DNA of 64,000 bases from an uncultured bacterium (GTDB lineage: Bacteria; Hydrogenedentota; CAZGCA01), in assembly GCA_964524145.1 (NCBI GenBank), contig CAZGCA010000005.1, positions 31,038 to 95,037 of the forward strand, given 5' to 3'. The first letter of the stretch is position 1, and each line of letters starts with the position of its first letter. This document shows positions 8,103-44,447 of the stretch, in pieces. Position numbers and translations under genes: made by a program. The notes under the pieces are model-generated. The model saw only the letters and a program-made list of their open reading frames with translations, was not told where the DNA came from and made no database searches.

Positions 8103-8762
8103 ATGCTACCATTTAGTGCGAAAACTTCGTGCAGCACCCGGCATTTTGGCACTAGTACGGACGACGACCGACAGAGCGTGGAAGCGAAGGCTACGAGCGA
8201 GAAGGGGAGCAAAGCTCCAGACAACAAGACCGGACGACCGAGCGTGCTCAACCGCGAATCGGTAGTGTTCGTGGTGGTGTTTCTGGTGACGGTTGTTGCC
8301 GTATTTGTCCTTTACGAGTACATAAAGGACACCAAGCCGATGGCGCGCTACGTGGAGCTGATCTCGGGGCACGTGGGTACGGTTCTGCGTCTGAGCGGCA
8401 GAGACACGGTTGTCCGCGGCGATCGCGTCACGATCAAGCTGGACAAGAGTGATGCGAGCAAAAGGGCCCGGAGGTGGACGATGCAGGTTATCCCCGACTG
8501 CGGCGCTATTCCGTCGATGGCCATCTTTTGCGCCGCCGTGCTTGCGTTCCCTACCGGGCTGAGACGCAAGCTGCTCGGGGTGCTTATCGGGGTACCGTTG
8601 TTGTATGTCGTCAACGTCGGCCGACTTGTGTGCCTGGGCCTGGTCGGTCTGTATTATCGGAGCGGATTCCATTTTGCCCACGTCTACGTGTGGCAGTCGA
8701 TCTTCATCGTGTTTGTGGTCGTGATATGGATGGTGTGGGTCGATAAGGTAGCGAAAGTGTGA
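8103..8762 (+). CDS. Exosortase/archaeosortase-family protein (compact; true start uncertain, possibly near 8342)
   Basis: ISGHVGTVLRLSGRDTVVRGDRVTI ... VIPDCGAIPSMAIF resembles the exosortase G...Gn.i.l...V.eaCSG active-site Cys region. The downstream VVNVGRLV matches the conserved N-x-x-R motif. It is polytopic and hydrophobic. Confidence 0.5.
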   Translation: MLPFSAKTSCSTRHFGTSTDDDRQSVEAKATSEKGSKAPDNKTGRPSVLNRESVVFVVVFLVTVVAVFVLYEYIKDTKPMARYVELISGHVGTVLRLSGRDTVVRGDRVTIKLDKSDASKRARRWTMQVIPDCGAIPSMAIFCAAVLAFPTGLRRKLLGVLIGVPLLYVVNVGRLVCLGLVGLYYRSGFHFAHVYVWQSIFIVFVVVIWMVWVDKVAKV

Positions 8763-19117: not shown

Positions 19118-19340
19118 AGAATATCCCTCCCGATAACCTGATTGAAGCACCTTCTCATATCCAAGCAATTACATTACTGTACTCGACTATAAACCAAAGC
19201 ACCTCCTACGTCAAGCATCGCGCCGGTAGTCCCGAGACATGGGTGATGTCCAGGTGCCCACAAACTGGCGGCGGGGGGAAGATAGGTGTTATAATTCAAT
19301 AAAGAGACCGAAACGCTTAGAAAACCAGGGGGTGATAACG

Positions 19341-20501
19341 ATGATATTCGGAAAACAAGCCGGTAAGACCCGGCGGGCAGTGGCTTGTGTGGCTGGGCTG
19401 TGTTTGATCGCAGCGCTGTTCACCGTTTCGGCCGCTGCACAACCCGGCAAGATGCGTATGCCCGCTGGCCGGGACAGCGGCGACCAGAACGCGTATAGCA
19501 CGCAACAGCAAGGGGTTACGAACGTCTCTGCGGGTTCGCGGGGTTCGTTCGTGCCCGGGGTCCAGCGTGATGCCGCACGTGCGGGAGCACCGCACACAAA
19601 ATACCGGGTGCCGCCTCAGGCACCCCCGGCTCCTGTGCGTCCAAACCCGATTCCCCCACCTCAGCCGCAGTCCCGAACCGTAATACCGGCGGTTCCCGGC
19701 TCGACCCCAACCGTCATACCGAGAGGGACGCCACCCACGATCGAGCCACGGGGTCACGGCAGCGTACCGAACAGGCCTCGCTCCGGGCCGGGTTATCATC
19801 CGAGGCGTCCGTATCGGCGCGGGGATGCGTACAACCCGTTCAGGCTTGGCGGATGGCGTGGCTGGAACTGGAACACGTACTACCACTCGCCCTTGAACCA
19901 AGGGTACACCTACTACTATCTCGGCGGCGTCCCCATGTACTACGGTTCTCCGGTCGTCGTCTACCCTGATTCCTGGTATCGCAGGGAAACGCCCGGCACG
20001 ACGGTCATTCCTCGGGTGGATCCGGTCAGACCTTCCAGCTTTGCCTCGTTTCACGATTATCTTGTCATTGAAGGAGACAAGCTGATCGCTGCCGGCAACT
20101 ACACAGAGGCGGCTGAGAAATACCGAACCGCGACATCTCAACAGCCTGAGAACGCCCGGACAAAAGTCGCCCTGGCGAACGCGCTGTTTGCTTCAGGCAA
20201 CTACGAGTTTGCCACGGAGGTGCTGCGCAAGTCGCTTCTCTGTCTCGCCGACAACGAACCGTTGCCGAACCCCGTGGGAACGTTTCCCACCAACGAAACC
20301 TTCGTGACGCTGATTCGCAAACTCGAGAGCCGCGCAGCGCTCCGTCCGGGAGATGGCTCGTTACGGTTGCTTCTCGGGTTCTACTACCTGTGCTCCGGCA
20401 GGACGGACTCCGCCATCAGCGAGCTACAGGAAACGGTGTCGCGCGACAAAGAGGACCTCGAGGCGGCATACCTGCTGCGCGTTGCACAACGGCACGGTTG
20501 A
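19341..20501 (+). CDS. Secreted Pro/Tyr/Gly-rich protein with C-terminal TPR repeats
   Basis: RBS aggggg lies 9 bp upstream of ATG 19341. Signal peptide MIFGKQAGKTRRAVACVAGLCLIAALFTVSAAAQ. The C-terminus has TPR-like helices. Confidence 0.5.
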   Translation: MIFGKQAGKTRRAVACVAGLCLIAALFTVSAAAQPGKMRMPAGRDSGDQNAYSTQQQGVTNVSAGSRGSFVPGVQRDAARAGAPHTKYRVPPQAPPAPVRPNPIPPPQPQSRTVIPAVPGSTPTVIPRGTPPTIEPRGHGSVPNRPRSGPGYHPRRPYRRGDAYNPFRLGGWRGWNWNTYYHSPLNQGYTYYYLGGVPMYYGSPVVVYPDSWYRRETPGTTVIPRVDPVRPSSFASFHDYLVIEGDKLIAAGNYTEAAEKYRTATSQQPENARTKVALANALFASGNYEFATEVLRKSLLCLADNEPLPNPVGTFPTNETFVTLIRKLESRAALRPGDGSLRLLLGFYYLCSGRTDSAISELQETVSRDKEDLEAAYLLRVAQRHG

Positions 20502-20508
20502 GCGCGCC

Positions 20509-21372
20509 TTACCGTGCGAAGCTCATGATGAGCGAGCCGACGAGGCGGTTCCATCCGTCGGCGAGCACAAACATGATCACCTTGAAGGGGAGCGAGATGA
20601 AGATCGGGGGAAGCATAAACATGCCCATAGACATGAGCGTGCTGGCGACGACCATGTCTATGATCAGGAACGGTATGTAGAGCATGAACCCGATCTCGAA
20701 CGCTATCCGCAGCTCGCTGATGACGAAGGCGGGTATCAGCACGTGTGTGGGCACGTCGTCGAGCGTGTTGGGTCTTTCGATCTCCGAGAGCCGGACAAAC
20801 AGCAGGAGATCGCGCTCGCGCGTCTGGCGGAACATGAACTCTCTGATGGGGGTGAGGGCACGGTCGAACGCCTCGGCTTGCGTAATCTCCTGAGCCATGT
20901 ACGGCTGGAACGCGTCGACGTTGACCTGTTGCCATGTGGGCGCCATCACGAAAAACGTCAGAAATAGCGCCAGCCCCACGAGCACCTGGTTAGGCGGCAT
21001 CTGCTGGGTGGCGAGCGCTTGGCGGAGGAACCCGAGCACGACGATGATCCGGGTGAACGAGGTCATCATCACGAGGATAGCGGGTGCGAGCGCCAGGATG
21101 GTTACGAGAAAGAACACCTGGAACGCGGTCATGACCTGCTGCGGTGTTTCGGCAGTGGCGACCTCGAGACCGACCCTTGGTATGGGTATGGGAGCCGCTT
21201 CTTGCGCCAGCGCCGAAGAATGAGGGAGAGCGAACACCAACACAGCAAGCGCCGCCGCCAACAGCAAGGTGGAACGTAAAGGGTGAAAAGAAAGACGTAA
21301 GGCGTAAGGTGTGAGTTGCCGGCGAAACGGTGTCGATTTTACATTGTCAGTTGTCCGTTTCAGATTTTGCAT
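20509..21372 (-). CDS. fliP: Flagellar biosynthetic protein FliP
   Basis: Signal peptide plus 4-TM core with the FliP signature ...[32 protein letters not shown]...[27 protein letters not shown]. The start is ambiguous: ATG 21372 (inside repeat copy A), ATG 21489 (copy B) or TTG 21495. Confidence 0.85.
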
Positions 21373-21493
21373 TGCCGAACGTGAGGGTATGGTGGTAAGG
21401 CCTGACCGGAAACGTAGAACGTAAAGAGGGAGTCGCGGAGAAAACCTTCTGCATCTTACATTGTCAGTTGTCCGTTTCAGATTTTGCATTGCC
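21339..21493. repeat. Two copies of a 38-bp element (21339..21376 and 21456..21493) at the fliP 5' end. A related element lies upstream of fliF.
   Basis: ttacattgtcagttgtccgtttcagattttgcattgcc appears twice, 117 bp apart. On the gene strand each copy reads GCA-ATG-CAAAATCTGAAACGGACAACTGACAATG. Confidence 0.8.
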
Positions 21494-21504
21494 AAAGGGC
21501 TCGT

Positions 21505-22275
21505 CTAGCCCCGTTCCTCACCATCGATTCCCTCGGAAAACTCCTTTATCTTCTCAAGCTCGCTTCTAAGGTCTTCGAGATGTTCGGCCACCCCGAGTCT
21601 TTCTTCAACGGGCTTGCGGCGCTCGAACCGTTTGTGGAACCTGTCGAGGTATTTTCCAAACGCGGCCGAGGTCGGCTCGGTCTCGCCTGGGGCCACCCCG
21701 AATTCGGTAAGGACTTTCGGATCGGTTATCTCCGTGATGCACGATATGGCGTTCGGGGTGGTGCCGACAACGAGTATCCTGTCGGGAAGCCTGACCCAGT
21801 AGAGCGAGGTCTTGGGAGCAAGTTGCATGCGGCCAATTATCTTGCCGAAACGTTGGTCGAGCAGAAACGTGCTCTTGCCGCCGAACTTCTTCACCAGATA
21901 CACCACGAAAAAGAAGCCGCCCAGCACAACAACAAGGGCTATGGACATTCTGACAAGGTCTTTGAACGCACTCGGTTCAACGCCGGTTTCGGCAGCAGTC
22001 TCGCGACCCGCGTAGTACTCCTCGAGTGTGAGCGATCCCTCGGTACCGAGAGCCTCCTCAGCGTCCCAGGTCTCTTCGGGTTGCAGTGCGGACTCGTCTT
22101 CGAGCGCGTCGTCAGCAATGACGGCAGCGGCGTCGGGCGCCTCTTCCTGCGCAACGGCACACGCGGCGACTGCCACAGCCGCAACGCACAATCCAACGTA
22201 ACGTAACGGTGCAGGTAGTCTGGGTCTAAGAACCATCACCTTTTCCTTCAGTGTCTTGGACCTGTTCTTCTTCAC
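21505..22275 (-). CDS. FliO/FliZ-family flagellar biosynthesis protein (putative)
   Basis: Single TM (MSIALVVVLGGFFFVVYLV) and an acidic N-terminal region. Positioned between fliN and fliP as in the Bacillus fla/che operon (fliZ/fliO). Confidence 0.45.
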   Translation of the reverse strand: MKKNRSKTLKEKVMVLRPRLPAPLRYVGLCVAAVAVAACAVAQEEAPDAAAVIADDALEDESALQPEETWDAEEALGTEGSLTLEEYYAGRETAAETGVEPSAFKDLVRMSIALVVVLGGFFFVVYLVKKFGGKSTFLLDQRFGKIIGRMQLAPKTSLYWVRLPDRILVVGTTPNAISCITEITDPKVLTEFGVAPGETEPTSAAFGKYLDRFHKRFERRKPVEERLGVAEHLEDLRSELEKIKEFSEGIDGEERG

Positions 22276-22621
22276 CCGGTTCGGCAGCGATAGTCGTCAA
22301 CCTCACAGCGAGCATATCGGCGATGACCACAATCTCGCCTCTGGCAAGGAACACGTCATTGACGAAGACATCGACCGTCTCACCAGCAAGTTTGTCAAGC
22401 TGTATGACGGCACCCTTGCGCATGTTAAGCACGTTGCGGACCAGCAACTTTGCACGGCCGAGCTCGACCGTGACTCTCAGCTTGACATCCGAGAGCATCT
22501 TGACATCTCTTGACGGACGGGCCTGCGACGTCGCATCCTGAATGGGCTCGAGTTCGGCCGGATCGTCTTTCACGACCGGGATGTCAGGTCCTGTCAGGAT
22601 AGGTCCCTTCTCAGTGGTCAA
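22226..22621 (-). CDS. fliN: Flagellar motor switch protein FliN (SpoA domain)
   Basis: VKLRVTVELGRAKLLVRNVLNMRKGAVIQLDKLAGETVDVFVNDVFLARGEIVV is the FliN/SpoA surface-presentation motif. Confidence 0.8.
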   Translation of the reverse strand: MTTEKGPILTGPDIPVVKDDPAELEPIQDATSQARPSRDVKMLSDVKLRVTVELGRAKLLVRNVLNMRKGAVIQLDKLAGETVDVFVNDVFLARGEIVVIADMLAVRLTTIAAEPGEEEQVQDTEGKGDGS

Positions 22622-22636
22622 TGGTATCTCCCTCCG

Positions 22637-23158
22637 CTACTGAATGGCGAACGAATTGAACCGGACAGCAGTAACCGCCTCGTAGCCGAGCTCCGCATTG
22701 ATCTTATCAACCATCTCCTTGCTGAGCCGCTGTTTGGCTTCAGTACTCTTTAATTGGTCGAACCTCTTGTCGGAAAGCAGCAGGATGAGCGTGTGTTTCA
22801 CCTGTGAGAGGATGGGATCGTCATCGTTCTCGAACCTCGTTTTCAGTTCGGGACTGGCCAGCGTGAGCTGTGGGTCGATTTGCAGGTACCGGTCAATGCC
22901 GCCGTGGTCAATGTTGGCTATAATCGAGCCCACATTATAGACCACTTGGGTTCCCTCCGGCTCGGAGCCCAGGATCGCTTCCAGTTCCTCCTCACTGTCC
23001 GGAGGTCCAAGCATGGGGATGAGAACGAGAAACACCACGGCACATGCCGCCCCGGCGCATCCGATAATCACGACTGCAAAGATGACCATCTTGATCATCC
23101 CCCCACCTTTCTTCTCAGTGGGTTGTTCTGGTGCTTCGTCTACCTCTTCTCCGGCCAT
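22637..23158 (-). CDS. fliL: Flagellar basal-body-associated protein FliL
   Basis: Single TM followed by YNVGSIIANIDHGGIDRYLQIDPQLTL, which is FliL-like. Located downstream of motB as in spirochaete/Firmicute operons. Confidence 0.65.
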   Translation of the reverse strand: MAGEEVDEAPEQPTEKKGGGMIKMVIFAVVIIGCAGAACAVVFLVLIPMLGPPDSEEELEAILGSEPEGTQVVYNVGSIIANIDHGGIDRYLQIDPQLTLASPELKTRFENDDDPILSQVKHTLILLLSDKRFDQLKSTEAKQRLSKEMVDKINAELGYEAVTAVRFNSFAIQ

Positions 23159-30268: not shown

Positions 30269-30835
30269 TCAGCCTGTTTGTCTCAGTAACTCCTTGAGTA
30301 TCGCTGCAACGCGTTCCGCATCATCGGCAGTTGTCCCCATCTTCTCGAGAACTTTGGCTCTCGCCTTCGCGCTCATGCGGGACAGAATCTTGAGTTGGTC
30401 CTCAAGCTCAAGCTTGCCGAGCTGTGCAGCGGCCTCTTGCTCCTTCATCTCTTCATAGGTTTTCACCCAATCGGACAGTTGTGCGTCTTGCTCTTGGGTC
30501 AGCGCTTCGAATTGTGCTGTCACCTGGTCGAGCGTCTCCTGAGCGTCGCGCTGAAGCGATTCGAGATCCTTCCGCTCCATCTGCAACCGTTTCCATTCCT
30601 CTTCAATCTCTGCCTCTCTCGCTTCGAGTTCCGTCTCCCTGGCCGCCATCTTCTCAGCTATCGTCACCGGCGTGGGCGGCGCTTTGAGCTCCGTGATCGC
30701 AAGCGAGTTGGTTTTCCCGCCTCGCAGCCGCTGGATCGTTTCCGGGTTGAGATACCCTTTTTGGAAAAGGAGACCTCCCGCAACAAGCACGAAAACAAAC
30801 AGCCCCGAACCCAACGCTTTCAGTATTGTACCCAT
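30269..30835 (-). CDS. YlxF-like flagellar protein (FlaA-locus 22.9 kDa / MgtE-N-like)
   Basis: N-terminal TM, a central coiled coil and a C-terminal LKILSRMSAKARAKVLEKM MgtE-N-like segment. It occupies the ylxF position between fliJ and fliK. Confidence 0.45.
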   Translation of the reverse strand: MGTILKALGSGLFVFVLVAGGLLFQKGYLNPETIQRLRGGKTNSLAITELKAPPTPVTIAEKMAARETELEAREAEIEEEWKRLQMERKDLESLQRDAQETLDQVTAQFEALTQEQDAQLSDWVKTYEEMKEQEAAAQLGKLELEDQLKILSRMSAKARAKVLEKMGTTADDAERVAAILKELLRQTG

Positions 30836-34400: not shown

Positions 34401-35957
34401 TTACTCAGTCTCTGCGAGCCACGTCTTCAAAAGGTTGGCAACGGTCTCAGGTTGCTCTTGTGACAACTTGGCAACCTCTTCCTGCATACGTTCCTTTGCG
34501 AGCGCCTCGTCTGAAGGGCGAATCTCCTCCGCTTCCACGGCAACTCGTGCCGCGCGCTCCATCGGTTTGAGCCTGCGCAGCATCGTTATGAGCACCACCA
34601 GCGCCACGCCTACGACCACGGCGGGGACGAGCTGTCTGGCAGCTTCCATCATGGTTCTGCGCCGCATCTCTCGGGCAGCCTCACCCATTGCCGCCGCCGC
34701 GGCGGCTTCTGCGCTCGTGTCAAACTGAGCATCATAGACAACGACACTGTCGCCGCGGGTCAGATCTGCTCCGACCGCCGCAACGATAAGCCCCTCGATT
34801 TGCGACCGCTCATCATCGGTGAGGGCGACGTATTGGAGTTCGCCGTCTTCCGTTGTGGTGGTACGCCCTTCTATCATGGCGCTCACGCTCAGCCTCTTGA
34901 TCGTGCCCGGCGCCACCATAGTGCTGGTTTCCGTCTTCGAGAGTTCGAAGTTCGTTGTTGTTGTTTCGGTTAGCTCTTTCGTCATCGATTGGGCGGGAGC
35001 GCCCTCTTCCGTGAGCGGAACATTTGCGATCGTTCCGGCCGGCCCGACGGGCGGTGCCTCAGTGGTGGTGGACTCTTCGGTAGTGGTGTCCTCGCTGAGG
35101 ATGGCGCCTTCCGGATCGTACTTTGTCTCGGTCGTTGAAACCTGGTCGAAATCCATCACCAGAGAGACAGAGACAGCGTGGTTCGGATAGAGAGGTTCGA
35201 GCATGGCCACGATCTTCTGCTTGTACTGGGCCTCGCGCGCTGCGACGGCCGCCGTCTGTCTGTCCGCCAGTTCCGCCACGGTATCAATCTCTTCGCTGGG
35301 TTTGTGGAGCTCGTTGCGCTGCGTATCCATAACGGCAATCTTGCTGGGCGGTATGCCCGTGCTGGCAGAGACCAGATTCACTATGCCGCGCACCTCCCGT
35401 TTACCAAGAGCCCCCGGGGACGTCAGCGATAGCAGCACGCCAGCGCTGGGTTCGCGCTGTTCCGCTGCCAGGAGCCGTTCCGGCGGCACATTGATGTGGA
35501 CCCGGGCGCTGCTCACTGCGTCGTACCATCCTATCGTCCGGCTCAACTCGCCCTCGATCGCTCGTTGCTTCTGGATGTTCTGCACAAAGTCAGTTACTCC
35601 CAGTCGTGTCTGGTCGAACAGCTCATACCCCACCACACCGCCTTGGATGGCGCCTTCACCGGAAAGCTGGTTGCGCAACTGATACACCTGGTTGCTCGGC
35701 ACCAGCACGGTGGCCCCACCGTCGGCTGTCTGGTACGGAACGCCGCGCGTTTCGAGCGCGGCGATCACCGAATCAGCGCTCTCGCGGGACAGGTTGCCGA
35801 ACAGTACGGCATACCTCGGTTGGCCGCCCCAGTACGTAAGGGCAACCACCACAATGAGTGCCCCGAGAAACGCGAGTCCAATATTGATGCGTGCGCTGAG
35901 GCTTAGCTTTCCCCACGCTTTTGCTATCCCATCAACGAGCTGCCTGAGGAAGTCCAT
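34401..35957 (-). CDS. fliF: Flagellar MS-ring protein FliF
   Basis: N-terminal TM, YscJ/FliF secretin-like ring domains (VPYQTADGGATVLVPSNQVYQLRNQLS) and a C-terminal TM. 518 aa. Confidence 0.9.
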   Translation of the reverse strand: MDFLRQLVDGIAKAWGKLSLSARINIGLAFLGALIVVVALTYWGGQPRYAVLFGNLSRESADSVIAALETRGVPYQTADGGATVLVPSNQVYQLRNQLSGEGAIQGGVVGYELFDQTRLGVTDFVQNIQKQRAIEGELSRTIGWYDAVSSARVHINVPPERLLAAEQREPSAGVLLSLTSPGALGKREVRGIVNLVSASTGIPPSKIAVMDTQRNELHKPSEEIDTVAELADRQTAAVAAREAQYKQKIVAMLEPLYPNHAVSVSLVMDFDQVSTTETKYDPEGAILSEDTTTEESTTTEAPPVGPAGTIANVPLTEEGAPAQSMTKELTETTTTNFELSKTETSTMVAPGTIKRLSVSAMIEGRTTTTEDGELQYVALTDDERSQIEGLIVAAVGADLTRGDSVVVYDAQFDTSAEAAAAAAMGEAAREMRRRTMMEAARQLVPAVVVGVALVVLITMLRRLKPMERAARVAVEAEEIRPSDEALAKERMQEEVAKLSQEQPETVANLLKTWLAETE

Positions 35958-36004
35958 ATCTACTATCCTCCCTTCCCATCACAGGGCGATAGCCCTCACA
36001 TACC

Positions 36005-36125
36005 ATGTGCAATGCAAAATGCCTATTGCAATCGAGTTTCTTCGCTTCGTTCAGAATGACACTGAACCACACGTCCTTCTGCCCAATTCATTCTGCATTG
36101 TCAGTTTTGGATTGTCCGTTCGTTC
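36005..36125. promoter_or_regulatory. Intergenic fliE-fliF region carrying a variant of the fliP 38-bp element in permuted order
   Basis: tgcaatgcaaaatgcc at 36009..36024 and gcattgtcagttttggattgtccgtt at 36091..36116 share the GCAATGCAAAAT, AACGGACAA and ACTGACAATG cores with the fliP copies. Confidence 0.5.
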
Positions 36126-36127
36126 TC

Positions 36128-36436
36128 CTAAACTTGCGTCCTCATTATCTCTTCATACACTTGGATCAACCTGTTTCGGAGCGTCAACATCGTCGTGAAC
36201 GCCAAGTCGGCCTTCTCGACGGCGATAAGCGCCTCGCTCACGTCCGTGATCTCGCCTGCCACCAGATCTTTTACTGTCTGGTCGGCTTGTGCCTGCAACC
36301 GTTGCACTTCGTCAATGGTCTCTGCCAGGATCTTCTTGAACGAAGCGCCCTGTTCAGTTGTCTCCGCCGGGCCGATCCTGGGCCGGGGCATGACGTCGCG
36401 CGGCCCAATAGGAGGGATCCTGAATTGGTCGGCCAT
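36128..36436 (-). CDS. fliE: Flagellar hook-basal body protein FliE
   Basis: C-terminal EALIAVEKADLAFTTMLTLRNRLIQVYEEIMRTQV is the FliE signature. Confidence 0.85.
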   Translation of the reverse strand: MADQFRIPPIGPRDVMPRPRIGPAETTEQGASFKKILAETIDEVQRLQAQADQTVKDLVAGEITDVSEALIAVEKADLAFTTMLTLRNRLIQVYEEIMRTQV

Positions 36437-36467
36437 AGTGCTTCACCTCCGGTTCACATCAGTCGCG

Positions 36468-36884
36468 TCAGTCGCGCAATATCTCCAGTGCAGTATTGGT
36501 CATCCGCTTCGTTGCGTTGACAGCCGCGACATTCGCCTCGTACCCGCGGCTGGCGCCGATCATATCGATCATCTCCATCGGGATCTCGACGTTCGGGTAC
36601 TCGACGTACCCCTGGCCGTCGGCGTCGGGATGTCCCGGGTTGAATACCGTCTTGAACGGCGACATGTCATGCACGATCTTGACGACATCCACGCCAAATC
36701 CTTTGCGATCTGCCTTCTCGGCTTCTTTGCCCATCAAGACGACCAGTTGACGCCTGAACGGGCCGCCGTCCGGCGTGCGCGTAGTGGTGGCGTTCGCAAT
36801 GTTGTTGGCGATTATATTCATTCTTATGCGCTGGGCGCGAAGGCCGGCGGCGCTGACGTCAAATGCCGAGAATATCTTTTCCAT
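36468..36884 (-). CDS. flgC: Flagellar basal-body rod protein FlgC
   Basis: SAAGLRAQRIRMNIIANNIANATTTRT rod N-terminal motif and a C-terminal GYVEYPNVEI...NATKRM motif. Confidence 0.9.
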   Translation of the reverse strand: MEKIFSAFDVSAAGLRAQRIRMNIIANNIANATTTRTPDGGPFRRQLVVLMGKEAEKADRKGFGVDVVKIVHDMSPFKTVFNPGHPDADGQGYVEYPNVEIPMEMIDMIGASRGYEANVAAVNATKRMTNTALEILRD

Positions 36885-36898
36885 AATCTGTTGACCTC

Positions 36899-37294
36899 TT
36901 ATCTTATGGTCCTGAGCAGGTACTTCATCGCGTCGTATCGCTTCGATAGCAGGCTGCCGTACACGGTATGGCGCCCCGTGTTCTTGGCTAGCTCGGCCAT
37001 CTCGAAGTCGATGTCCACCTCGTTGTAGTCGTTCTTCATATCCCTCGAACGCCGGTCCATGAACAACCGTTCTCTCTCGATGACAAAGTGGCGCCTGTGC
37101 GTTACGCGGCCGGTGAACGCGTCTTTTCCAGCAAGTGCCCGTTTGAGCGACTTTTGGAAATCGGTCCTTGCCGGTCGGAAGTTCGGCGTATCGACGTTGG
37201 CGATGTTGTTCGCTATGAGCCGGTGGTTGCGCTCCAAAATCGACAACGATCTGCGCAGAACATCCTCGACGCCAATCCCATTAAAAGCCGCCAC
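36899..37294 (-). CDS. flgB: Flagellar basal-body rod protein FlgB
   Basis: LERNHRLIANNIANVDTPNFR is the FlgB N-terminal motif. It is the first gene of the cluster. Confidence 0.85.
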   Translation of the reverse strand: MAAFNGIGVEDVLRRSLSILERNHRLIANNIANVDTPNFRPARTDFQKSLKRALAGKDAFTGRVTHRRHFVIERERLFMDRRSRDMKNDYNEVDIDFEMAELAKNTGRHTVYGSLLSKRYDAMKYLLRTIR

Positions 37295-37490
37295 CAGTCT
37301 GCCTCCTTCTTGGCCTCAGCTCACTCCTTATTGTCGAAAGTACAACACAAACCGCAACGAGTACGAGCAAACACCATGCCGAGCCTCCGTTTCTCGTAAT
37401 CGGTTGTGCTGCAATACCTTATGCCGGGACCCCGTTGTGTCGCATGGTCTCTTCAGATGCACAATAGTCCCCTCGGGCTGCAAATTCTGC

Positions 37491-38855
37491 CTACTTATCA
37501 GTCTGGGCGTACTCCTTCAACTTGTTGCGCAACGTGCGCACACTTATGCCGAGAACCTCAGCCGTGCGTGTGCGGTTCTGCCCACATTTGTCGAGCGTCG
37601 CTTCGATGAGCACTCTCTCCGTCTGCGCGACCGTCATGCCGGCGACCACGCCAAGCCCGTCACCAGACCGGGGGGCTGTGTCGCCCAATCCGAACGAGAA
37701 GTGCTTGGGCTGGAGCAGGTCATCGCAACTCAGCACCACAGCCCTCTCGATGTAGTTTTCGAGTTCCCTGATGTTGCCCGGCCATGAGTGGTTCATGAAC
37801 ATATCGAGCAACTCGTCGGAGATGCCGGTGACGTGCCGCCCGTTCTCGCCGTTGGATCTCGCGATGAAATGGTCAACCAAAGCGGGTATATCCTCTTTGC
37901 GCTCGCGCAGCGGAGGAAGATGTATCGGGATAACGTTAAGTCTGAAATACAGGTCTTCACGAAACCGCCCCTCCCTGACCTCACGCTGCAAATTGCGGTT
38001 CGTGGTGCTCAGTATTCGCGTGTCAACCGAGATGGGTTTCGTGCCGCCAACCCGCTCGAACTCCTTCTCCTGGAGAACGCGAAGCAGCTTGGCCTGTAGT
38101 GCGATACTTATCTCGCCCATCTCGTCGAGCAGCAGCGTGCCGCCGTCGGCAAGTTCAAACCGGCCGATGCGCCGCTGGTGGGCCCCGGTGAACGCGCCTT
38201 TCTCGTGTCCGAACAGCTCGCTTTCGAGCAACCCGCTGGCCAGCGCAGCGCAGTTCAGTTTTATGAACGGCTTGTCTCTACGGCCGCCGCTGTAATGTAT
38301 TGCACGGGCGACAAGTTCTTTGCCTGTTCCGCTTTCCCCCTCGATGAGCACCGATGCCCTGCTGTCGGCGACCTTTCTTATGGTCTCGTAGACTTCCTGA
38401 ATCTGAGGGCTGGTACCGACCATGTGCTCGAAATCGTAGATCTCGGTCAGTTCCCGGCGCAGGTACTGGTTCTCGTCCTCGAGCCGCCGACGTGCAATGG
38501 CCCTGTCAACGATAAGCTCCAACTCGTCCGGCGCAAACGGTTTCATAATGTAATCCGCAGCGCCGGCCTTCATCGCAGCGACAGCCGTCTCGACAGTCCC
38601 GTACGCGGTCATCATGACAATCTCGGTCGATGGGCTGTCCTGCTTGACCCGCTCGAGCACCTGCATTCCGTCCATCCCGCCCATCTTCAGGTCGGTCACC
38701 ACCACGTGGTAGGCATTCTTGGAGAACTCCGCCAGCCCCGACGTTCCGTCTTCCGCTACCGACACACCGTAGCCGGCGCGCTCGAGCGTTTCCCGCACAA
38801 ACTCCCGCATAAGCGGTTCATCGTCAATAACGAGCACGGTTTTTTTCGCTGTCAT
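37491..38855 (-). CDS. Sigma-54-dependent response regulator (NtrC/FlrC/FleR-like: REC + AAA+ + Fis HTH)
   Basis: REC domain (VLVIDDEPLMREF...VVTDLKMGGMDG). AAA+ domain with the GAFTGA motif (GHEKGAFTGA). C-terminal HTH_8. ATG 38855 overlaps the kinase stop (ATGA). The ORF-track N-terminal extension is rejected. Confidence 0.9.
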   Translation of the reverse strand: MTAKKTVLVIDDEPLMREFVRETLERAGYGVSVAEDGTSGLAEFSKNAYHVVVTDLKMGGMDGMQVLERVKQDSPSTEIVMMTAYGTVETAVAAMKAGAADYIMKPFAPDELELIVDRAIARRRLEDENQYLRRELTEIYDFEHMVGTSPQIQEVYETIRKVADSRASVLIEGESGTGKELVARAIHYSGGRRDKPFIKLNCAALASGLLESELFGHEKGAFTGAHQRRIGRFELADGGTLLLDEMGEISIALQAKLLRVLQEKEFERVGGTKPISVDTRILSTTNRNLQREVREGRFREDLYFRLNVIPIHLPPLRERKEDIPALVDHFIARSNGENGRHVTGISDELLDMFMNHSWPGNIRELENYIERAVVLSCDDLLQPKHFSFGLGDTAPRSGDGLGVVAGMTVAQTERVLIEATLDKCGQNRTRTAEVLGISVRTLRNKLKEYAQTDK

Positions 38856-40078
38856 TGTTCCTCTCGTATAGGCAGGAGAATATCGAGGGTCGAACCTGCG
38901 TTTAGTTCGCTTTGCACCTCGATGCGGCCGTGATGCCCTTCGGTTATCTTTGCTGCTATTGCAAGTCCCAGCCCCGTGCCGCGGTCTTTGGTCGTGAAGA
39001 ACGGGTTGAAGATCTTCTCTCGGTCGTCGGGATCTATACCGCACCCGCTGTCGACGACCCTGATACGCCCGGCTTTGCCCACCAGAGGAGTTTTCTCGTC
39101 CGGAGGGAGGTCAACCCGGGACGTCTCTACGGTCAGCGCGCCGCCGTCGGCCATGCTCTGCACGGCGTTCAGCAGTATGTTGAGCAACACCTGCCTCATC
39201 TTCTCGCGGTCCGCGGTGATTATCAGGTTGCCATTGTCGTAACGTTTCTCGACAGAGATTCCCCTCGATTGGATCTCCCCGTCAAGCAGGAGAAGCACGT
39301 CATCGATCAGCCCTGGACACTCTATCTGGTCGAACTTGAACTCGAGCGGCCGGGTGAACGCCAGCAGGTCGGATACCACTTGGTTCAGGCTCTTGGTGCC
39401 TTCCAGTATCCTCTCGATAAGCTTTTTCTGTGGCGCGCTGTCCCGGAAATCGCGCGCCAAAAGCAGCGCGAACCCCTCGATTCCTCCGAGCGGGTTGCGT
39501 ATTTCGTGCGCAACGGTTGCAGCCATCTCGCCCAACGCCGCCAACCGGTCCTTGCGCCGAATCTCTTGCCTTAATTGCGTGATCTCGCGCAGATCCTGAA
39601 ACACCTTGACCGTTCCTACCGTCAAGCCGACGCTGTCGGTCACACGTGAAACCCTCTCGCTTATCGGTATCGGTTTCCCCTGTTTGCCGACGATCTCCGT
39701 TACCTGATGGTCAACAATGGACGAAGCCGACCGATGGTCAAACCTCTGGCCAAACACTGACGCATACTCTTCCGACAGCACGTCGTCCGCATCGAGGCCC
39801 GTTATCTTCCCGGCCGCACGGTTAAATGTGGTGATCCTGCCTTCGAGGTCAACAGCCACCACTCCGTCGCTCATGCCGTTGAGTATGCTGTCCAGATAGT
39901 CTTTCATCCGGTTGATTTCTTCTACTTTGCGTGCCAGCTCGCGGTTTTTGCGTTCGAGTTCCTGGTCGAGCGCTTGGATGCGCTGGGTAAGCTTCTCGTG
40001 TGCCTCCTCGAGGTGGCGTGTGGTTTCCGTGAACGCCCGGAAGCTGGCTTCCAACTGCTTCATCTGGTTGATGCTCAT
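38852..40078 (-). CDS. Cytoplasmic sensor histidine kinase (coiled coil + PAS + HisKA + HATPase_c)
   Basis: PAS domain (ILNGMSDGVVAVDLEGRITTFNRAAGKITG). H-box HEIRNPLGGIEG. N/G boxes (LLNILLNAVQ...DSGCGI...GTGLGL). No TM segment. Its start overlaps the upstream stop (ATGA). Confidence 0.85.
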   Translation of the reverse strand: MSINQMKQLEASFRAFTETTRHLEEAHEKLTQRIQALDQELERKNRELARKVEEINRMKDYLDSILNGMSDGVVAVDLEGRITTFNRAAGKITGLDADDVLSEEYASVFGQRFDHRSASSIVDHQVTEIVGKQGKPIPISERVSRVTDSVGLTVGTVKVFQDLREITQLRQEIRRKDRLAALGEMAATVAHEIRNPLGGIEGFALLLARDFRDSAPQKKLIERILEGTKSLNQVVSDLLAFTRPLEFKFDQIECPGLIDDVLLLLDGEIQSRGISVEKRYDNGNLIITADREKMRQVLLNILLNAVQSMADGGALTVETSRVDLPPDEKTPLVGKAGRIRVVDSGCGIDPDDREKIFNPFFTTKDRGTGLGLAIAAKITEGHHGRIEVQSELNAGSTLDILLPIREEQ

Positions 40079-40551
40079 GCTTTCTGATCGAGAAACTTCG
40101 CGGCTACACCTGGCCGTTGCCGGTACGCGTGAAGCGTTCTCCTCCCTTCTTTCAACTGCTCAAGTTCGTCAGATACTCCCGCTATCTTCCCGCGAACCAC
40201 CCGCTCACCGGCGGTTTCTGCGTCAATGGCGCGCTCGAGAACGCTGAGGCTGGCTTGATATGCCGTCTCAACGTCGGTTCTCATTTCCTCGGACGCCTCA
40301 TCTCGGGCAGCCAGCCAGCATTTGACAGCGGTTGCCGTACGCTCGCATGCCTGTTTAAGCAACGACAAAACCTCTTGGCGGCGCGAGCCGATCTCCTCCG
40401 CCAGAGGCTCGGAGTGATCGTCACGACTTTTTCTGAACAGCTCGCCTATCTGCACCAGCTCCTTGCAGAGCGTATCCTGTCGCACGAGGCAATCAACCAG
40501 AGTCTTGCCGCACTCGTCGGCTTCAACAGTCTGCGCACCACGTCCTGTCAT
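40075..40551 (-). CDS. Small helical hypothetical protein, translationally coupled between the TPR protein and the histidine kinase
   Basis: About 158 aa from ATG 40551, with ATGA overlaps at both ends (40548-40551 and 40075-40078). No recognisable domain. Confidence 0.4.
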   Translation of the reverse strand: MTGRGAQTVEADECGKTLVDCLVRQDTLCKELVQIGELFRKSRDDHSEPLAEEIGSRRQEVLSLLKQACERTATAVKCWLAARDEASEEMRTDVETAYQASLSVLERAIDAETAGERVVRGKIAGVSDELEQLKEGRRTLHAYRQRPGVAAKFLDQKA

Positions 40552-43547
40552 GAGCCGCCCCGAAGGTTGAGCTCGACCGCGGCGAACTCCTGTTTCGCTT
40601 TGGCTAGGTCTTTCCAGTGGGATTTGGGGAACAACGTCAGGAAATCGGCATAGTGTTTTTCGGACGCGGTATAATCCTGCTGTTGGAGACAGCAGTTCCC
40701 CTGCTGTAGTGACGCCCACTCGACGGCACCATCCGTCAGGTCGCCGAGCGACGCTATCTCGCCGTAGATGTTGCCGGCAGCCTTATAGTCGCCGATCTTA
40801 AAGAGTCGGTCGCCCCACTCAACGCAATGGGTCCGCAGGAAATCCGACGTCTTGTCTTGCCGTTGAGCCAGCGATTTCATCTCGTTCACCAACCGTGCCG
40901 CATCGGTATCGCGCTCGAGGGCTACGTACGTGCGTAACAGCACCCCATCGCCTTCGAGGGTTCTCTGGCTCGGATACATCTCGTGCGCTCTGGCGAGCTC
41001 TTTCAACGCACCGTGCAGGTTGCCGACGCCGCGCTTCGTCGTTCCAAGTTCGACCAGCGTGTTGTAGGCCACGGAATCAGGCACCCGTTTCAGGTCGACT
41101 CGTGCCAGATACTGCAGCCCCTTCTCCCACTCGCCGCACTTGAGGAACAGCGCTCCCGCCATGTACAACGCCTCGTGGTTTTTGTCTCCGCTCGCCATCG
41201 TGACGTACGTTTCCGCTGCGTCTTCATACAAACCGAGGTGCTCGTACACCTCCCCCATCTTGCGCAGAATGAGATCGCGGCGAGGCCCGGTCACGGTGTC
41301 GGCGAGTTTCGATTCCAGCACGTTTAGTGCCACCTGAGGTTGGCCTGATAGATAGTACACCTCCGCCAACTTCATGCTCGCATTGAATACGATCCCTTCC
41401 GAAGGATCCCCCGTCGCGACCTTCCGCAAGGCGACTTCGCTCTGTTCAAGGTTGCCGCTTGCAAGCGTGCTCAGACCTAGTCCGTACCACGCGTTTGTCT
41501 GGTCTTTATCCTTCCTCAACGCTTCCTTATACAGCCTGGTCGATTCGCCCCAGTTGCCGTCCTCATACTCGAGTTCGGCCAGTTCAATCATAAGAGGAAC
41601 GTTGTCCGGCCAGCGGTAGTTGCTGCTTCGGGCCGTTCGGAGTGCTTCCGGCTGCCTGTCTTGCTCGCAGAGTATCTTACACAGCAGCAGCGCCGCCGCC
41701 GTGGCGTGCTCGCTGTCGGGAAACACGTCCATCACGTTCAGACACGTCCGTTCGGCCTTCCCATAGTCTTTCTTGCCCGCAAACACCTCGGCAAGGTGCA
41801 GCAACACCTTGTCGTTACCCTCGACGGATGTCGAAACCTGAAGCCTCTTCTCAAGCTCGTCGGCGGCAGTGTCGAAGTCGCCGTTCTCAGCAGCTATTAC
41901 GCTGAGCTGTTCGTATGCCGGCGCAAGCACGTCGTCGTCGCGGGTCTCCTGCACGAGTTTCTTGAATATCTTCTCGGCGGCACTGGTTCTGCCTTGTCCC
42001 GCAAGCGACCGCGCCAGCAGGAAGTTGGCCTTATCGAGTATCGGCTCACTCTGATAATCCCACATAATCTGTCGCAACTTCTTTTCAGCGGCAACGTGAT
42101 CCCCTTCAAGGAGAAACATACGCCCGACGGCAAGTTGTACCTCGGCGATATCCGGATAATCGGGGAACTTCTGCGCAGTCTCTTCATACGTCTCGCGGGC
42201 TACCGCGTAGCTTCCGGCCCGTTCATAGAGCCCGCCCACCCGTGCCATGGCCAGCGGAACGCTGGGACTCTCCGGGTCGTGCTCGACGGCTTTCTGATAG
42301 AGCTCGCGGACGTGTCTTATTTCCGCCGGATTGGATGCTTCGTGGAGCAAGGCTTCCGACGTTTCGGCCAGCAAGAACATCATTGGCGAACGGGGGGCAG
42401 CCGGGTCTGCTTTCGCCAGCTCTTCCAGCAAGAGCTCTCTGGCTTCGACATATTCGCCGTCATCGAACAGAGATTTGGCTCGATCCAACGCCGTGATGAT
42501 AGGCGCCGGTTCCCCAGAGACCGGCTTGGAGACGTCGGGCGCCCTGTATTGAGAGCGGGAGCCCATCCACGAGTAAGCCGCCATCCAGGTAAGAATTCCA
42601 ATAAAGACGGAACATGCCACCGGCAAGATGGACCGGACACTTGCCGGAAACCTCACGACTATCCGTTTCCCCTCTGGGGGTTCTCCAGTCTCGGGTTCCT
42701 CGGCTTCCGGTTTTGCCGCTTCCTCCACCTGCGCGGCTTCTTCCAACTCGGCCGCTTCTTCCACCTCAACTTCGGCGACAAGGTCGGCGAGATCGGTTGT
42801 CGGACGCTCAGCGACCTCAGCTTCAAGTTCTTCGGTGGGAACGTGTGCCGCCGCCTCGAGCGCAGACAGAACGGCATCTTCATCTATGGCCGATTCTGCC
42901 TCGGCAGTTTCGATAGACTCCTCCGTCGTAACGGGTTCAGCTGGCTCAGTGCCTGCCACTGCCGACACCGTTTCTTCCTGATAGAGGTCGGCCTCCGCGG
43001 GTTCCGCTGCCGCAGCAACCTCCGGCTCGACTTCCGGCTGGCTCACTTCTGCCTCAGCCACCGGCTCCTCCGGCGGCACACTCAGCGCTTCCATCGCTGC
43101 AACCAGTTTGCCTTTCTCCACCCCCTCCGCCGGAGTCTCGGCTTCCTCCTCCGTTGTTTCCTCCTCCGGAGCGGGTTCCTCCTCCGGAGTGGGTTCCTCA
43201 GGCAACTCGGCAGTTTCAGGACTCTCGTCGGCCTTGGCTTCTACTCGAAGCGCCTCCTCGAACATCCTGTCGAGTTCCGTCTCGCTGATGCTTTCTGCCG
43301 TCGTGGTGCTTTCCTCGTCCGGACTAACACCCAGCTCGGCGAAAAGTCTGTCGACTTCCGTTGTTGAAAGCTCGGCCGGCATAGCGGCGTCGAGATCGTC
43401 CAGATCCTCATCTGCCGCGCCGCCGCCGCTTAAGATCGACTCGAGATCGTCCAGCGATGGCGCTTCTTCGGCCGAGTCCTCGGTAGGTTCCGCCTGTTCA
43501 GGCGCGTCTGCATCAGGGGGTGGTACCACGGGTCCGCCTCCGCGCAT
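40548..43547 (-). CDS. Large TPR-repeat protein (about 1000 aa) with an acidic low-complexity N-terminus and one TM
   Basis: Glu/Ala/Pro-rich N-terminus (EEPAPEEETTEEEAETPAEG...). TM segment ILPVACSVFIGILTWMAAYSWM. At least 12 TPR-like repeats follow. Start taken at MRGGGP (43547). Confidence 0.6.
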   Translation of the reverse strand: MRGGGPVVPPPDADAPEQAEPTEDSAEEAPSLDDLESILSGGGAADEDLDDLDAAMPAELSTTEVDRLFAELGVSPDEESTTTAESISETELDRMFEEALRVEAKADESPETAELPEEPTPEEEPAPEEETTEEEAETPAEGVEKGKLVAAMEALSVPPEEPVAEAEVSQPEVEPEVAAAAEPAEADLYQEETVSAVAGTEPAEPVTTEESIETAEAESAIDEDAVLSALEAAAHVPTEELEAEVAERPTTDLADLVAEVEVEEAAELEEAAQVEEAAKPEAEEPETGEPPEGKRIVVRFPASVRSILPVACSVFIGILTWMAAYSWMGSRSQYRAPDVSKPVSGEPAPIITALDRAKSLFDDGEYVEARELLLEELAKADPAAPRSPMMFLLAETSEALLHEASNPAEIRHVRELYQKAVEHDPESPSVPLAMARVGGLYERAGSYAVARETYEETAQKFPDYPDIAEVQLAVGRMFLLEGDHVAAEKKLRQIMWDYQSEPILDKANFLLARSLAGQGRTSAAEKIFKKLVQETRDDDVLAPAYEQLSVIAAENGDFDTAADELEKRLQVSTSVEGNDKVLLHLAEVFAGKKDYGKAERTCLNVMDVFPDSEHATAAALLLCKILCEQDRQPEALRTARSSNYRWPDNVPLMIELAELEYEDGNWGESTRLYKEALRKDKDQTNAWYGLGLSTLASGNLEQSEVALRKVATGDPSEGIVFNASMKLAEVYYLSGQPQVALNVLESKLADTVTGPRRDLILRKMGEVYEHLGLYEDAAETYVTMASGDKNHEALYMAGALFLKCGEWEKGLQYLARVDLKRVPDSVAYNTLVELGTTKRGVGNLHGALKELARAHEMYPSQRTLEGDGVLLRTYVALERDTDAARLVNEMKSLAQRQDKTSDFLRTHCVEWGDRLFKIGDYKAAGNIYGEIASLGDLTDGAVEWASLQQGNCCLQQQDYTASEKHYADFLTLFPKSHWKDLAKAKQEFAAVELNLRGGS

Positions 43548-43964
43548 TCTCCCAAAGCCGCAAGGGTAGAGTTGTCTCCCTCGACAAAAATATGTGCTGT
43601 CAAGTGCGTAACAGCACGTTAAAACACTGTACCGACGTCGTCCGTGATGTTCAGCTATATCATAGCACATTTTCGCGGTATTGTCAAGTCAATACTATCC
43701 CACAACATCTTGCGGCATGGGAACTTAACGGGATTTAACCCCATGTGCTGGGCTTACAAGCCCGGCAGAATATTCCTAGCGCGGCGGGATACTCTGAAAC
43801 AGGTGAATATGTGCAGCCGATGTATCGAGGAGCGGATCGAGGTTTTACGGTTCAAACCAAGGCCGCATATCTCGCTGGAGCCCTGGGGTGTGGGTATTGG
43901 GAAGTCTTGTATGGATTCACATTCGGGGGTGGATTGTACTACAATCAGAGAGTGAAAGGAGGGC

Positions 43965-44447
43965 ATGCAGATGAAGGTTTATCTGGTACAGCACGGTGAA
44001 CCTGTTCCGAAGGAGACGGATCCTGAACGTCCATTAACGGAGAAAGGCCGTGCGGATGCTCGGAAGGTTGCGAGGTTGCTGGGGATGTCGCAGGTCAAGG
44101 TTCCGGAAGCGTGGCACAGCGGCAAGACGCGGGCAAGGGAAACTGCGGAGATCCTTGCTGCTGCAATCGAGGCCGAAGTCTCGAAAGCTGAAGGTCTCGC
44201 TCCGCTCGATCCGGTATCCCCGGTTCGCGACAAGATAGAGGGGCGCGCGGAGGATTTGATGCTGGTGGGTCACCTGCCGTTCATGGCGCGGTTGGCCTCG
44301 CTGCTCGTGCTGGACAATGAGTTGCCGGAGATAGTAGCATTCCGCCAGGGCGGCATCGTATGCATCGAGGGCCGGGAGGACGGTGGGTGGCGGGTGGCGT
44401 GGATGGTCGTCCCGGACCTGCTTTGCGGTGATACTGGAGACGCGTGA
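43965..44447 (+). CDS. sixA: Phosphohistidine phosphatase SixA-like (histidine phosphatase superfamily)
   Basis: MKVYLVQHGEPVPKETDPERPLTEKGRADARKVA carries the RHG-type catalytic motif region of SixA. 160 aa. Confidence 0.6.
   Translation: MQMKVYLVQHGEPVPKETDPERPLTEKGRADARKVARLLGMSQVKVPEAWHSGKTRARETAEILAAAIEAEVSKAEGLAPLDPVSPVRDKIEGRAEDLMLVGHLPFMARLASLLVLDNELPEIVAFRQGGIVCIEGREDGGWRVAWMVVPDLLCGDTGDA

Follow-up and report, generated by a model that had tools for sequence, protein, structure and literature searches.

The flagellar two-component systems FleS/FleR of Pseudomonas, FlrB/FlrC of Vibrio and FlgS/FlgR of Campylobacter and Helicobacter combine a cytoplasmic histidine kinase with a regulator made of receiver (REC), AAA+ and helix-turn-helix (HTH) domains, and the kinases known in this role (FlrB, FleS, FlgS) come almost entirely from Proteobacteria and Campylobacterota. 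FlgN, the export chaperone of FlgK and FlgL, is a protein of ~140 amino acids (aa) that is usually encoded by flgM, flgK or flgL. The signal received by FlrB, FleS and FlgS is described as the finished MS ring and export apparatus, with the activity of these kinases depending on the rotor as well, and the input of flagellar kinases is at the same time an acknowledged open question (PMC7064773). Large periplasmic proteins with tetratricopeptide repeats (TPR) are known as scaffolds of the flagellar motor, namely PflA and PflB in Campylobacter and Helicobacter and FlcA in Borrelia (PMC12222027, PMC8609358). Such scaffolds sit in the motor and are needed to recruit stators. Here we analyse a stretch of 64,000 nucleotides (nt) from an uncultured bacterium of the Hydrogenedentota (contig CAZGCA010000005.1, positions 31,038 to 95,037, hereafter the window), in which four genes encoding a TPR protein, a small protein, a histidine kinase and a sigma-54 activator stand at the head of a flagellar cluster. 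We propose, with a probability of roughly 0.55 and from sequence analysis, that this head operon, of a type found in Planctomycetota and Abyssobacteria, would combine a FleS/FleR-like switch for the sigma-54-dependent flgB operon with a FlgN-family chaperone and a periplasmic TPR accessory protein.

The gene chain, its promoters and the two-component system

The four open reading frames (ORFs) run head to tail on the minus strand from 43547 to 37491, ahead of flgB-flgC-fliE-fliF, and are joined by three ATGA stop/start overlaps. At the TPR/small junction (40551-40548), the end GGS of the first protein runs onto the start MTGRG of the second (...ggc tcA TGA cag...); at the small/kinase junction (40078-40075), QKA runs onto MSINQ (...aaa gcA TGA gca...); and at the kinase/regulator junction (38855-38852), EEQ runs onto MTAKK (...gaa caA TGA cag...). 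The preliminary description of this locus, made from the letters alone, had placed the overlaps at these positions and given the gene coordinates and sizes; all three overlaps are present in the sequence and the ORFs of 999, 158, 408 and 454 aa agree with it. Four-nt overlaps are frequent in GC-rich operons. These three are nevertheless the sole genuine ones among the more than 20 genes that make up the flagellar cluster, and the whole window contains only two others (at 8759 and 10238, plus strand), so that three consecutive ATGA overlaps are locally distinctive.

Rather than an independent promoter for each gene, which the preliminary description had named as a finding that would speak against coupling, a single sigma-70-type promoter is detectable, just upstream of the first gene, and it is the sole good minus-strand site within 35800-44000. 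The leader of ~100 nt between this promoter and the TPR start contains a 9-bp stem-loop followed by ATATTTTTGT (43594-43617, minus strand), which looks like a terminator or an attenuator. An Rfam scan of 37200-44000 gave no match and shuffled sequences fold as well as the 5' leader (z = -1.1); there is thus no indication of a riboswitch.

The kinase consists, according to Pfam, of PAS, HisKA and HATPase_c domains, and it has no hydrophobic segment. Its coiled coil and PAS domain in a cytoplasmic protein correspond to the architecture described for FleS (PMC7064773). The regulator combines Response_reg, Sigma54_activat, AAA_lid_14 and HTH_8, with a Walker A motif at residue 173 and GAFTGA at 220, and the initial proposal of a soluble PAS kinase with a GAFTGA-type sigma-54 activator is thus borne out by the domains, by the lack of a hydrophobic segment in the kinase and by the motif. 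The best matches of the regulator, 62-63% identical, come from an uncultured bacterium and from Candidatus Abyssobacteria SURF_17.

The gap of 196 nt between the regulator gene and flgB contains a sigma-54-type -24/-12 element which is the unique perfect YGGCAYG-N4-TTGCW match in the window and precedes the flgB start by 72 nt. Elements of the GG-N10-GC/TTGC form are found upstream of flgB in 16 of the 18 related loci (TGGCATGAATGTTGCC in L014 and L015, TGGCATTATATTTGCT in L086; L numbers designate the loci retrieved in this work). A direct repeat, TGCAGCACAAC / TGCGACACAAC, with a spacing of 31 bp, occurs on the minus strand at 37403-37444, ~25-65 nt upstream of the -24 element. The activator may bind to this repeat, and a repeat search upstream of the sigma-54 element returned short, weak repeats only.

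At the sequence level, the kinase and the regulator show three features of flagellar sigma-54 two-component systems: the domain architecture, the location in a flagellar cluster and the adjacent sigma-54 element. As in FleS/FleR-type systems, rod and MS-ring genes are the direct neighbours, and the adjoining flagellar operon has a sigma-54 promoter. Unlike those systems, the pair of the window is coupled to FlgN-family and periplasmic TPR genes behind a sigma-70 promoter, and no FleQ/FlrA-type master regulator adjoins it in the window. The simplest reading of these signals is that of a sigma-70-driven regulatory operon whose regulator would fire the sigma-54 promoter of the flgB operon.

The small protein and the TPR protein

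The small protein, first described as unknown, turns out to belong to the FlgN export-chaperone family, as indicated by the Pfam matches of its homologues and by a family hidden Markov model (HMM). A word-indexed homology search returned one 90% identical copy only; an exhaustive phmmer comparison with 1.84 billion representatives added four more proteins of 151-161 aa that align end to end (E 2e-6 to 8e-4), and further members came from loci retrieved afterwards. Pfam FlgN (PF05130, gathering score 30.5 bits) is the best match in all ten other family members, over nearly the full profile, and exceeds the gathering score in four of them (34.7, 34.9, 33.7 and 37.7 bits; 17.9-28.7 bits in the other six). 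An HMM built from the homologues without the window protein recovers the latter end to end with 72 bits (E 2e-24). Its FlgN membership is transitive, because it is linked through the homologue HMM and phmmer and not through a direct Pfam match.

The AlphaFold2 (AF2) model of the protein shows three long helices in a bundle (mean confidence, pLDDT, 83.6), as expected of a small all-alpha chaperone. At least 90% of 15 family members keep two residues, W79 and a C-terminal tyrosine, Y143, within an 'AYG/AYR' motif. The FlgN protein of Salmonella needs W78 (with residues 76-78) to bind FliJ and Y122 to bind FlhA_C (bioRxiv 10.1101/2020.01.10.902387). W79 and Y143 match the positions of these two residues, an equivalence deduced from spacing and not from direct alignment, and this positional match suggests a working export chaperone. 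The protein of the window thus resembles FlgN by its size (158 versus ~140 aa), its all-helical bundle and the full-length HMM match among family members, but it is very divergent, is not directly recognised by Pfam or NCBIfam, and is encoded in an early, regulator-containing operon where its gene abuts the kinase gene instead of flgM, flgK or flgL. Indeed, flgK, flgL, flgM and flagellin genes are all absent from the 64-kb window, and the canonical flgN context is not found there.

The first gene has an ambiguous start. The ATG at 43547 (999 aa) is directly abutted by GGGAGA; a GTG 18 nt downstream (43529) has a better spaced GGAGG, would give 993 aa and is adopted by some public gene calls (P0002, 993 aa). 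A longer ORF from an ATG at 43670 was excluded, that ATG falling within the -10 box of the promoter. In accordance with the preliminary description, the protein is acidic and membrane-anchored, with a tail (residues 1-299) rich in aspartate and glutamate, one transmembrane segment and TPR repeats. In the AF2 model the solenoid reaches a pLDDT of 80-90 and the tail remains below 50 apart from short helices. Pfam assigns many TPR families to the protein, including the periplasmic types TPR_6, YfiO (BamD) and TPR_21, and NCBIfam a YbgF-type match that likewise leans towards the periplasm.

Full-length homologues of the TPR protein (17-31% identity) occupy the equivalent position in L004, L007, L010, L011, L012, L014, L015, L022, L025, L027, L036, L086 and L096-L099, and in most of these 17-90 residues precede the transmembrane helix. 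Because the relatives with N-termini of 17-40 residues have signal-anchor topology, and the Pfam and NCBIfam types agree, a periplasmic location is predicted for the TPR solenoid; in prediction the protein is a large periplasmic TPR superhelix, one transmembrane helix followed by ~38 helices. It would therefore have no contact with the soluble kinase, except perhaps through the tail. The long acidic tail occurs in the window and L004 only. The idea of a stoichiometric scaffold for the soluble kinase, advanced from the overlaps, is consequently not supported, since the domain is predicted periplasmic and the long tail is lineage-specific.

Foldseek places 9hmf_K, a 773-residue chain of the flagellar periplasmic scaffold of C. 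jejuni (PMC12222027), at rank 3 and as top bacterial match of the TPR model (E 1.4e-14), a structural likeness that is suggestive, not diagnostic. The protein shares with PflA/PflB and FlcA a large size (about 800-1000 aa class), a predicted periplasmic solenoid and a linkage to flagella. It differs from them in lacking sequence homology, in being bitopic with a cytoplasmic N-terminal tail and in heading a regulatory operon. By its sequence, it belongs to no named flagellar family.

Two other candidates for a relationship were set aside. The score of YbgF/CpoB (TIGR02795), 93 bits against a cut-off of 90.1, is summed over three separate TPR stretches, and the size (999 aa), architecture and context of the window protein misfit a protein of ~250 aa with a coiled coil and one TPR domain encoded in the tol-pal operon. 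The TPR matches P0004 and P0006 were rejected as orthologues, being located in SPOR/ExbB-type contexts.

Loci of Thermodesulfobacteriota and related 'delta' loci also encode secreted TPR proteins of 720-870 aa, with a FleQ-like activator on one side and the flagellar kinase/regulator or flgB on the other (L042, 4848-7157; L066, 4578-7124; L080, 5723-7891; L060, 9419-12040). These TPR proteins have a signal peptide, a non-TPR N-terminal domain and TPR repeats, an architecture like that of PflA, and no FlgN-like gene lies alongside. A PDB sequence search with them returned generic or designed TPRs and neither PflA, PflB nor FlcA.

The acidic tail itself contains two short peptides, at residues 60-69 and 87-96 (Table 1), which recall EIDAL, the conserved motif at the N-terminus of FliM that is bound by CheY (PMC6946799). 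This precedent leads to a second proposal, in which the tail would act as a membrane tether whose peptides bind CheY-P or the receiver of the operon's own regulator, so as to concentrate or sink a response regulator at the flagellar pole or motor. The tail of the L004 orthologue (L004, 985-2240) holds three copies (LKQSELDALI, LEQSELDALI and LSQSDIETLI) beside the two of the window, which are predicted as short helices in the disordered acidic region; the pattern essentially never arises in 20,000 composition-preserving shuffles and recurs in none of the 6,809 other ORFs from the loci gathered to that point, counts that refer to a pattern defined after the sequences were seen. In FliM, however, the motif stands at the N-terminus of a C-ring protein, whereas here it is internal, repeated and carried by a membrane-anchored TPR protein. 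The window copies, of the form L-S-x-x-E-[VL]-D-x-[LM]-F, are degenerate (E-V-D-R-L-F and E-L-D-R-M-F versus E-I-D-A-L-L) and are putative docking peptides. Most family members, moreover, have tails of 17-90 residues without the motif; since the long tail and the motifs are limited to the lineage of the window and L004, tethering would not be a conserved function of the family, and we regard it as quite doubtful.

Conservation of the linkage and the input to the kinase

The synteny was followed from three independent anchors (the TPR protein, the small protein and the regulator). The order TPR-small-kinase-regulator-flgB was found in ~15 independent, divergent loci from Planctomycetota, Candidatus Abyssobacteria (Hydrogenedentota) and unclassified metagenome-assembled genomes, and it is kept at 17-58% protein identity across at least two phyla. 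The TPR anchor gave L004 (28% identity), which reads TPR(1130)-small(149)-PAS kinase-regulator-flgB-flgC-fliE-fliF; the small-protein anchor gave L007, L010, L011 and L099, with the same TPR-small-kinase-regulator-flgB order; and the regulator anchor, applied to one genome per GTDB species, gave the full module in L014 (an uncultured bacterium), L015 (Candidatus Abyssobacteria SURF_17, from a class of Candidatus Hydrogenedentota), L022, L025, L027 (Phycisphaerae), L036, L061, and L086 and L090 (Planctomycetota). In addition, a metagenome scan with a narrow alignment of the small protein returned five loci from one metagenome (L094-L098), with gaps of +3 to +6 nt between the small and kinase genes; the regulator gene follows in L094, L095 and L097, L096 and L098 end inside the kinase gene, and a TPR-family gene lies upstream of the small gene in L096, L097 and L098. 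In L095 (1434-3773), a methyl-accepting chemotaxis protein (HAMP and MCPsignal) stands upstream of the FlgN-like gene in place of the TPR protein.

The linkage, whose absence from related genomes would have spoken against the preliminary description, thus recurs in ~15 loci with TPR proteins of 17-31% identity. The statement that the TPR and small genes stand outside the canonical FlrBC and FleSR modules also holds: loci of KSB1, Zixibacteria, Ignavibacteria and Thermodesulfobacteriota have kinase-regulator-flgB without TPR-family or FlgN-family genes. The full ATGA chaining is strictly kept only in the closest relatives of the window (L001-L003). Across loci, the TPR-small junction varies from -4 to +57 nt and the kinase-regulator junction from -8 to +157 nt, and the small-kinase junction stays between -4 and +10 nt in every kinase-bearing locus, with an overlap in about half of them (at least in the window, the near-identical L001-L003, L011, L014, L015, L025 and L036). 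The linkage is real and old, and the chaperone-kinase junction is the one that stays tight.

An incidental adjacency, in which a non-flagellar AtoS/AtoC-like system, a generic TPR protein and a hypothetical protein would merely lie upstream of flgB, appears very improbable. It could draw on AtoS and AtoC being the best NCBIfam matches of the kinase and the regulator, and on the ubiquity of TPR proteins, weaker matches such as P0004 and P0006 lying in unrelated contexts. Yet the AtoS and AtoC scores are well under the equivalog cut-offs, the small protein is in the FlgN family, the sigma-54 promoter stands exactly between the regulator and flgB, and the order conserved in these ~15 loci effectively refutes it.

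The tight junction bears on another explanation, namely that the kinase would take its input from the FlgN-like chaperone, alone or together with the TPR protein: the free or loaded chaperone would report the export status and feed back on the sigma-54-dependent early genes. The kinases of L007, L011, L027 and L099 (280-319 aa) have only HisKA and HATPase_c and no sensor domain, so that a partner protein probably supplies their input, and the input of flagellar kinases is an open question, as said above. Several family members also match Pfam FliT weakly, and in Salmonella free FliT inhibits FlhD4C2 (PMC5493677). A small helical flagellar chaperone could report the export status in the same way here, with the difference that its target would be a histidine kinase or a sigma-54 activator and not FlhDC, which is hypothetical. 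Against this stands the locus L012 (ENA ERZ27249683, 5352-8569), in which a TPR protein of 863 aa and a FlgN-like protein of 161 aa are followed by flgB 82 nt downstream, with neither kinase nor regulator and without a good sigma-54 element. The conserved tryptophan and tyrosine fit an ordinary chaperone cycling between FliJ and FlhA, the TPR domain is predicted to be periplasmic, and tight spacing is ordinary within operons. We therefore consider a chaperone input to be unlikely, although worth keeping in view. A joint scheme, in which the co-produced FlgN-family chaperone would provide the kinase input (late-substrate occupancy setting early sigma-54 transcription) and, in the lineage of the window, the TPR protein would link the periplasmic scaffold to cytoplasmic receivers through the EIDAL-like peptides, seems rather doubtful from our analysis.

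The arrangement in L012 also indicates that the TPR-FlgN pair belongs primarily to the flagellar operon and that the two-component system is non-obligatory. Together with the conserved FliJ- and FlhA-binding residues, the periplasmic TPR prediction and the TPR-flagellar adjacency in Thermodesulfobacteriota, it is the reason why we favour a FleS/FleR-like switch accompanied by a chaperone and a TPR accessory protein. Briefly, the sigma-70-type promoter would transcribe the four translationally coupled genes; the soluble coiled-coil/PAS kinase would phosphorylate the REC/AAA+/HTH activator, by a presumed phosphorelay; and the activator would open the sigma-54 promoter ahead of flgB and turn on the rod, MS-ring, C-ring and export genes. 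The FlgN-family chaperone would most likely escort FlgK and FlgL, its probable clients, to the export gate via FliJ and FlhA, and the TPR protein, with its periplasmic solenoid of 650 residues, would most likely be a flagellum-associated scaffold or assembly factor like PflA/PflB or FlcA. The TPR-FlgN pair would be an old part of the flgB operon, with the two-component system placed between the pair and flgB in most, not all, lineages.

Several results weigh against this reading. The kinase and the regulator reach none of the NCBIfam equivalog cut-offs: the regulator scores 318 bits with FlgR_Campy and 390 with FlbD_Caul (cut-off 750 for both), and the best matches are AtoC for the regulator (519 versus 714) and AtoS for the kinase (313 versus 646). 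A direct Pfam scan of the small protein gave no family at E<=0.01 and an NCBIfam scan nothing meaningful. Foldseek returned non-significant, generic helical bundles for its model (Smac/DIABLO, ESCRT-III), with the FlgN-like protein 2fup (PA3352) at rank 17 (E 0.55, 2.8 A over 112 columns, non-significant), and 2fup is also the top hit of a PDB sequence/profile search, at a non-significant E of 0.12. The TPR protein scores 24.4 bits with NCBIfam FlcA_CTERM against a cut-off of 300, and a PDB sequence search with it returned generic or designed TPRs only and no PflA, PflB or FlcA, a negative limited by the 9HMF chains being alpha-carbon traces and perhaps not sequence-searchable. The TM-score of 9hmf_K is low (0.24-0.31), amid many generic TPR matches. 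A FlgN protein that was purely a passenger leaves the tight, conserved junction with the kinase gene unexplained. Finally, ahead of fliF no promoter-like site could be recognised, so that the MS-ring, C-ring and export genes may share the sigma-54 promoter of flgB, and if the whole early operon needs this regulator, an input from the MS ring and the export apparatus cannot be primary. In contrast to FleS/FleR-type systems, the target operon of the window seems to include fliF, fliG and fliHIJ, and their MS-ring/export checkpoint may not apply.

Surroundings and significance

Table 1. Positions in the window of the four genes, their predicted protein regions and the associated signals.
Feature	Position	Strand	Basis
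Sigma-70-type promoter of the four-gene operon, TTGACA-17-TATGAT with TG extension	43659..43687	-	11/12 consensus matches
Gene 1, predicted bitopic TPR protein, 999 aa (993 aa if GTG start)	40548..43547	-	ORF, Pfam, hydropathy, AF2
Acidic N-terminal tail, residues 1-299, predicted cytoplasmic and disordered	42651..43547	-	32% D+E, net charge -83
EIDAL-like motif 1, LSTTEVDRLF, residues 60-69	43341..43370	-	AF2 short helix 63-71
EIDAL-like motif 2, ISETELDRMF, residues 87-96	43260..43289	-	AF2 helix 89-107
Single transmembrane segment, residues about 304-326	42570..42638	-	Hydropathy ~304-326, AF2 helix 308-328
Predicted periplasmic TPR/alpha-solenoid, residues ~349-995, ~38 helices	40563..42503	-	Pfam TPR families, AF2
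Gene 2, divergent FlgN-family export chaperone, 158 aa, conserved W79 and Y143	40075..40551	-	phmmer, Pfam of homologues, HMM, AF2
Gene 3, cytoplasmic histidine kinase, 408 aa (coiled coil, PAS, HisKA with H191 as phospho-acceptor, HATPase_c)	38852..40078	-	Pfam
Gene 4, NtrC-family response regulator, 454 aa (REC with receiver Asp D55, sigma-54 AAA+ with GAFTGA at 220, HTH_8)	37491..38855	-	Pfam
Sigma-54-type -24/-12 element CGGCATGGTGTTTGCT	37366..37381	-	Perfect YGGCAYG-N4-TTGCW match
Likely target operon: flgB 37294-36899, flgC 36884-36468, fliE 36436-36128, fliF 35957-34401	34401..37294	-	Pfam

Beyond fliF, the likely target operon goes on with fliG, fliH, fliI, fliJ, a gene of 188 aa, fliK, flgD, a 'Flagellar_put' gene, flgE, motA, motB, fliL, fliO and fliP, to ~20509. 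The 188-aa ORF between fliJ and fliK (30269-30835, minus strand) has no Pfam family and a faint NCBIfam likeness to the spirochaete collar protein FlbB (E 0.0085, 15.9 bits versus a cut-off of 110); L012 and L099 have a gene comparable to it in size and position. At the end of the cluster (20509-23158, minus strand), no recognisable fliM, fliN, fliQ, fliR, flhB or flhA follows fliL-fliO-fliP. Because these genes are missing from the cluster, as flgK, flgL, flgM and flagellin genes are from the window, the flagellar regulon is split over several loci. Further on lie a second TPR protein of 420 aa (19239-20501, plus strand) and a protein of 1660 aa with Kelch-repeat, Ig-like and dockerin regions (14186-19168, minus strand).

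Full-text literature searches found no description of a TPR-FlgN-kinase-regulator operon, and a survey of sigma-54 regulons reports sigma-54-dependent motility genes in Planctomycetia without mention of this module (PMC12316311). The arrangement, present in at least two bacterial phyla, is apparently previously undescribed. If the TPR and FlgN genes were mere passengers, the result would still be useful, but as an ordinary annotation of an operon layout particular to these lineages. Already at this level, a set of 'hypothetical' proteins is assigned to the FlgN family, and the TPR protein becomes a candidate for a new periplasmic accessory protein of the flagellum in Planctomycetota and Hydrogenedentota, two groups with essentially unstudied motors. 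Above all, the adjacency of kinase and FlgN-family genes across phyla provides a concrete and cheaply testable hypothesis on the input of flagellar kinases, for which a protein partner is likely because several of the orthologous kinases have no sensor domain. If the chaperone were indeed this input, a feedback of the FliT/FlhDC type would have been rebuilt on a two-component system.

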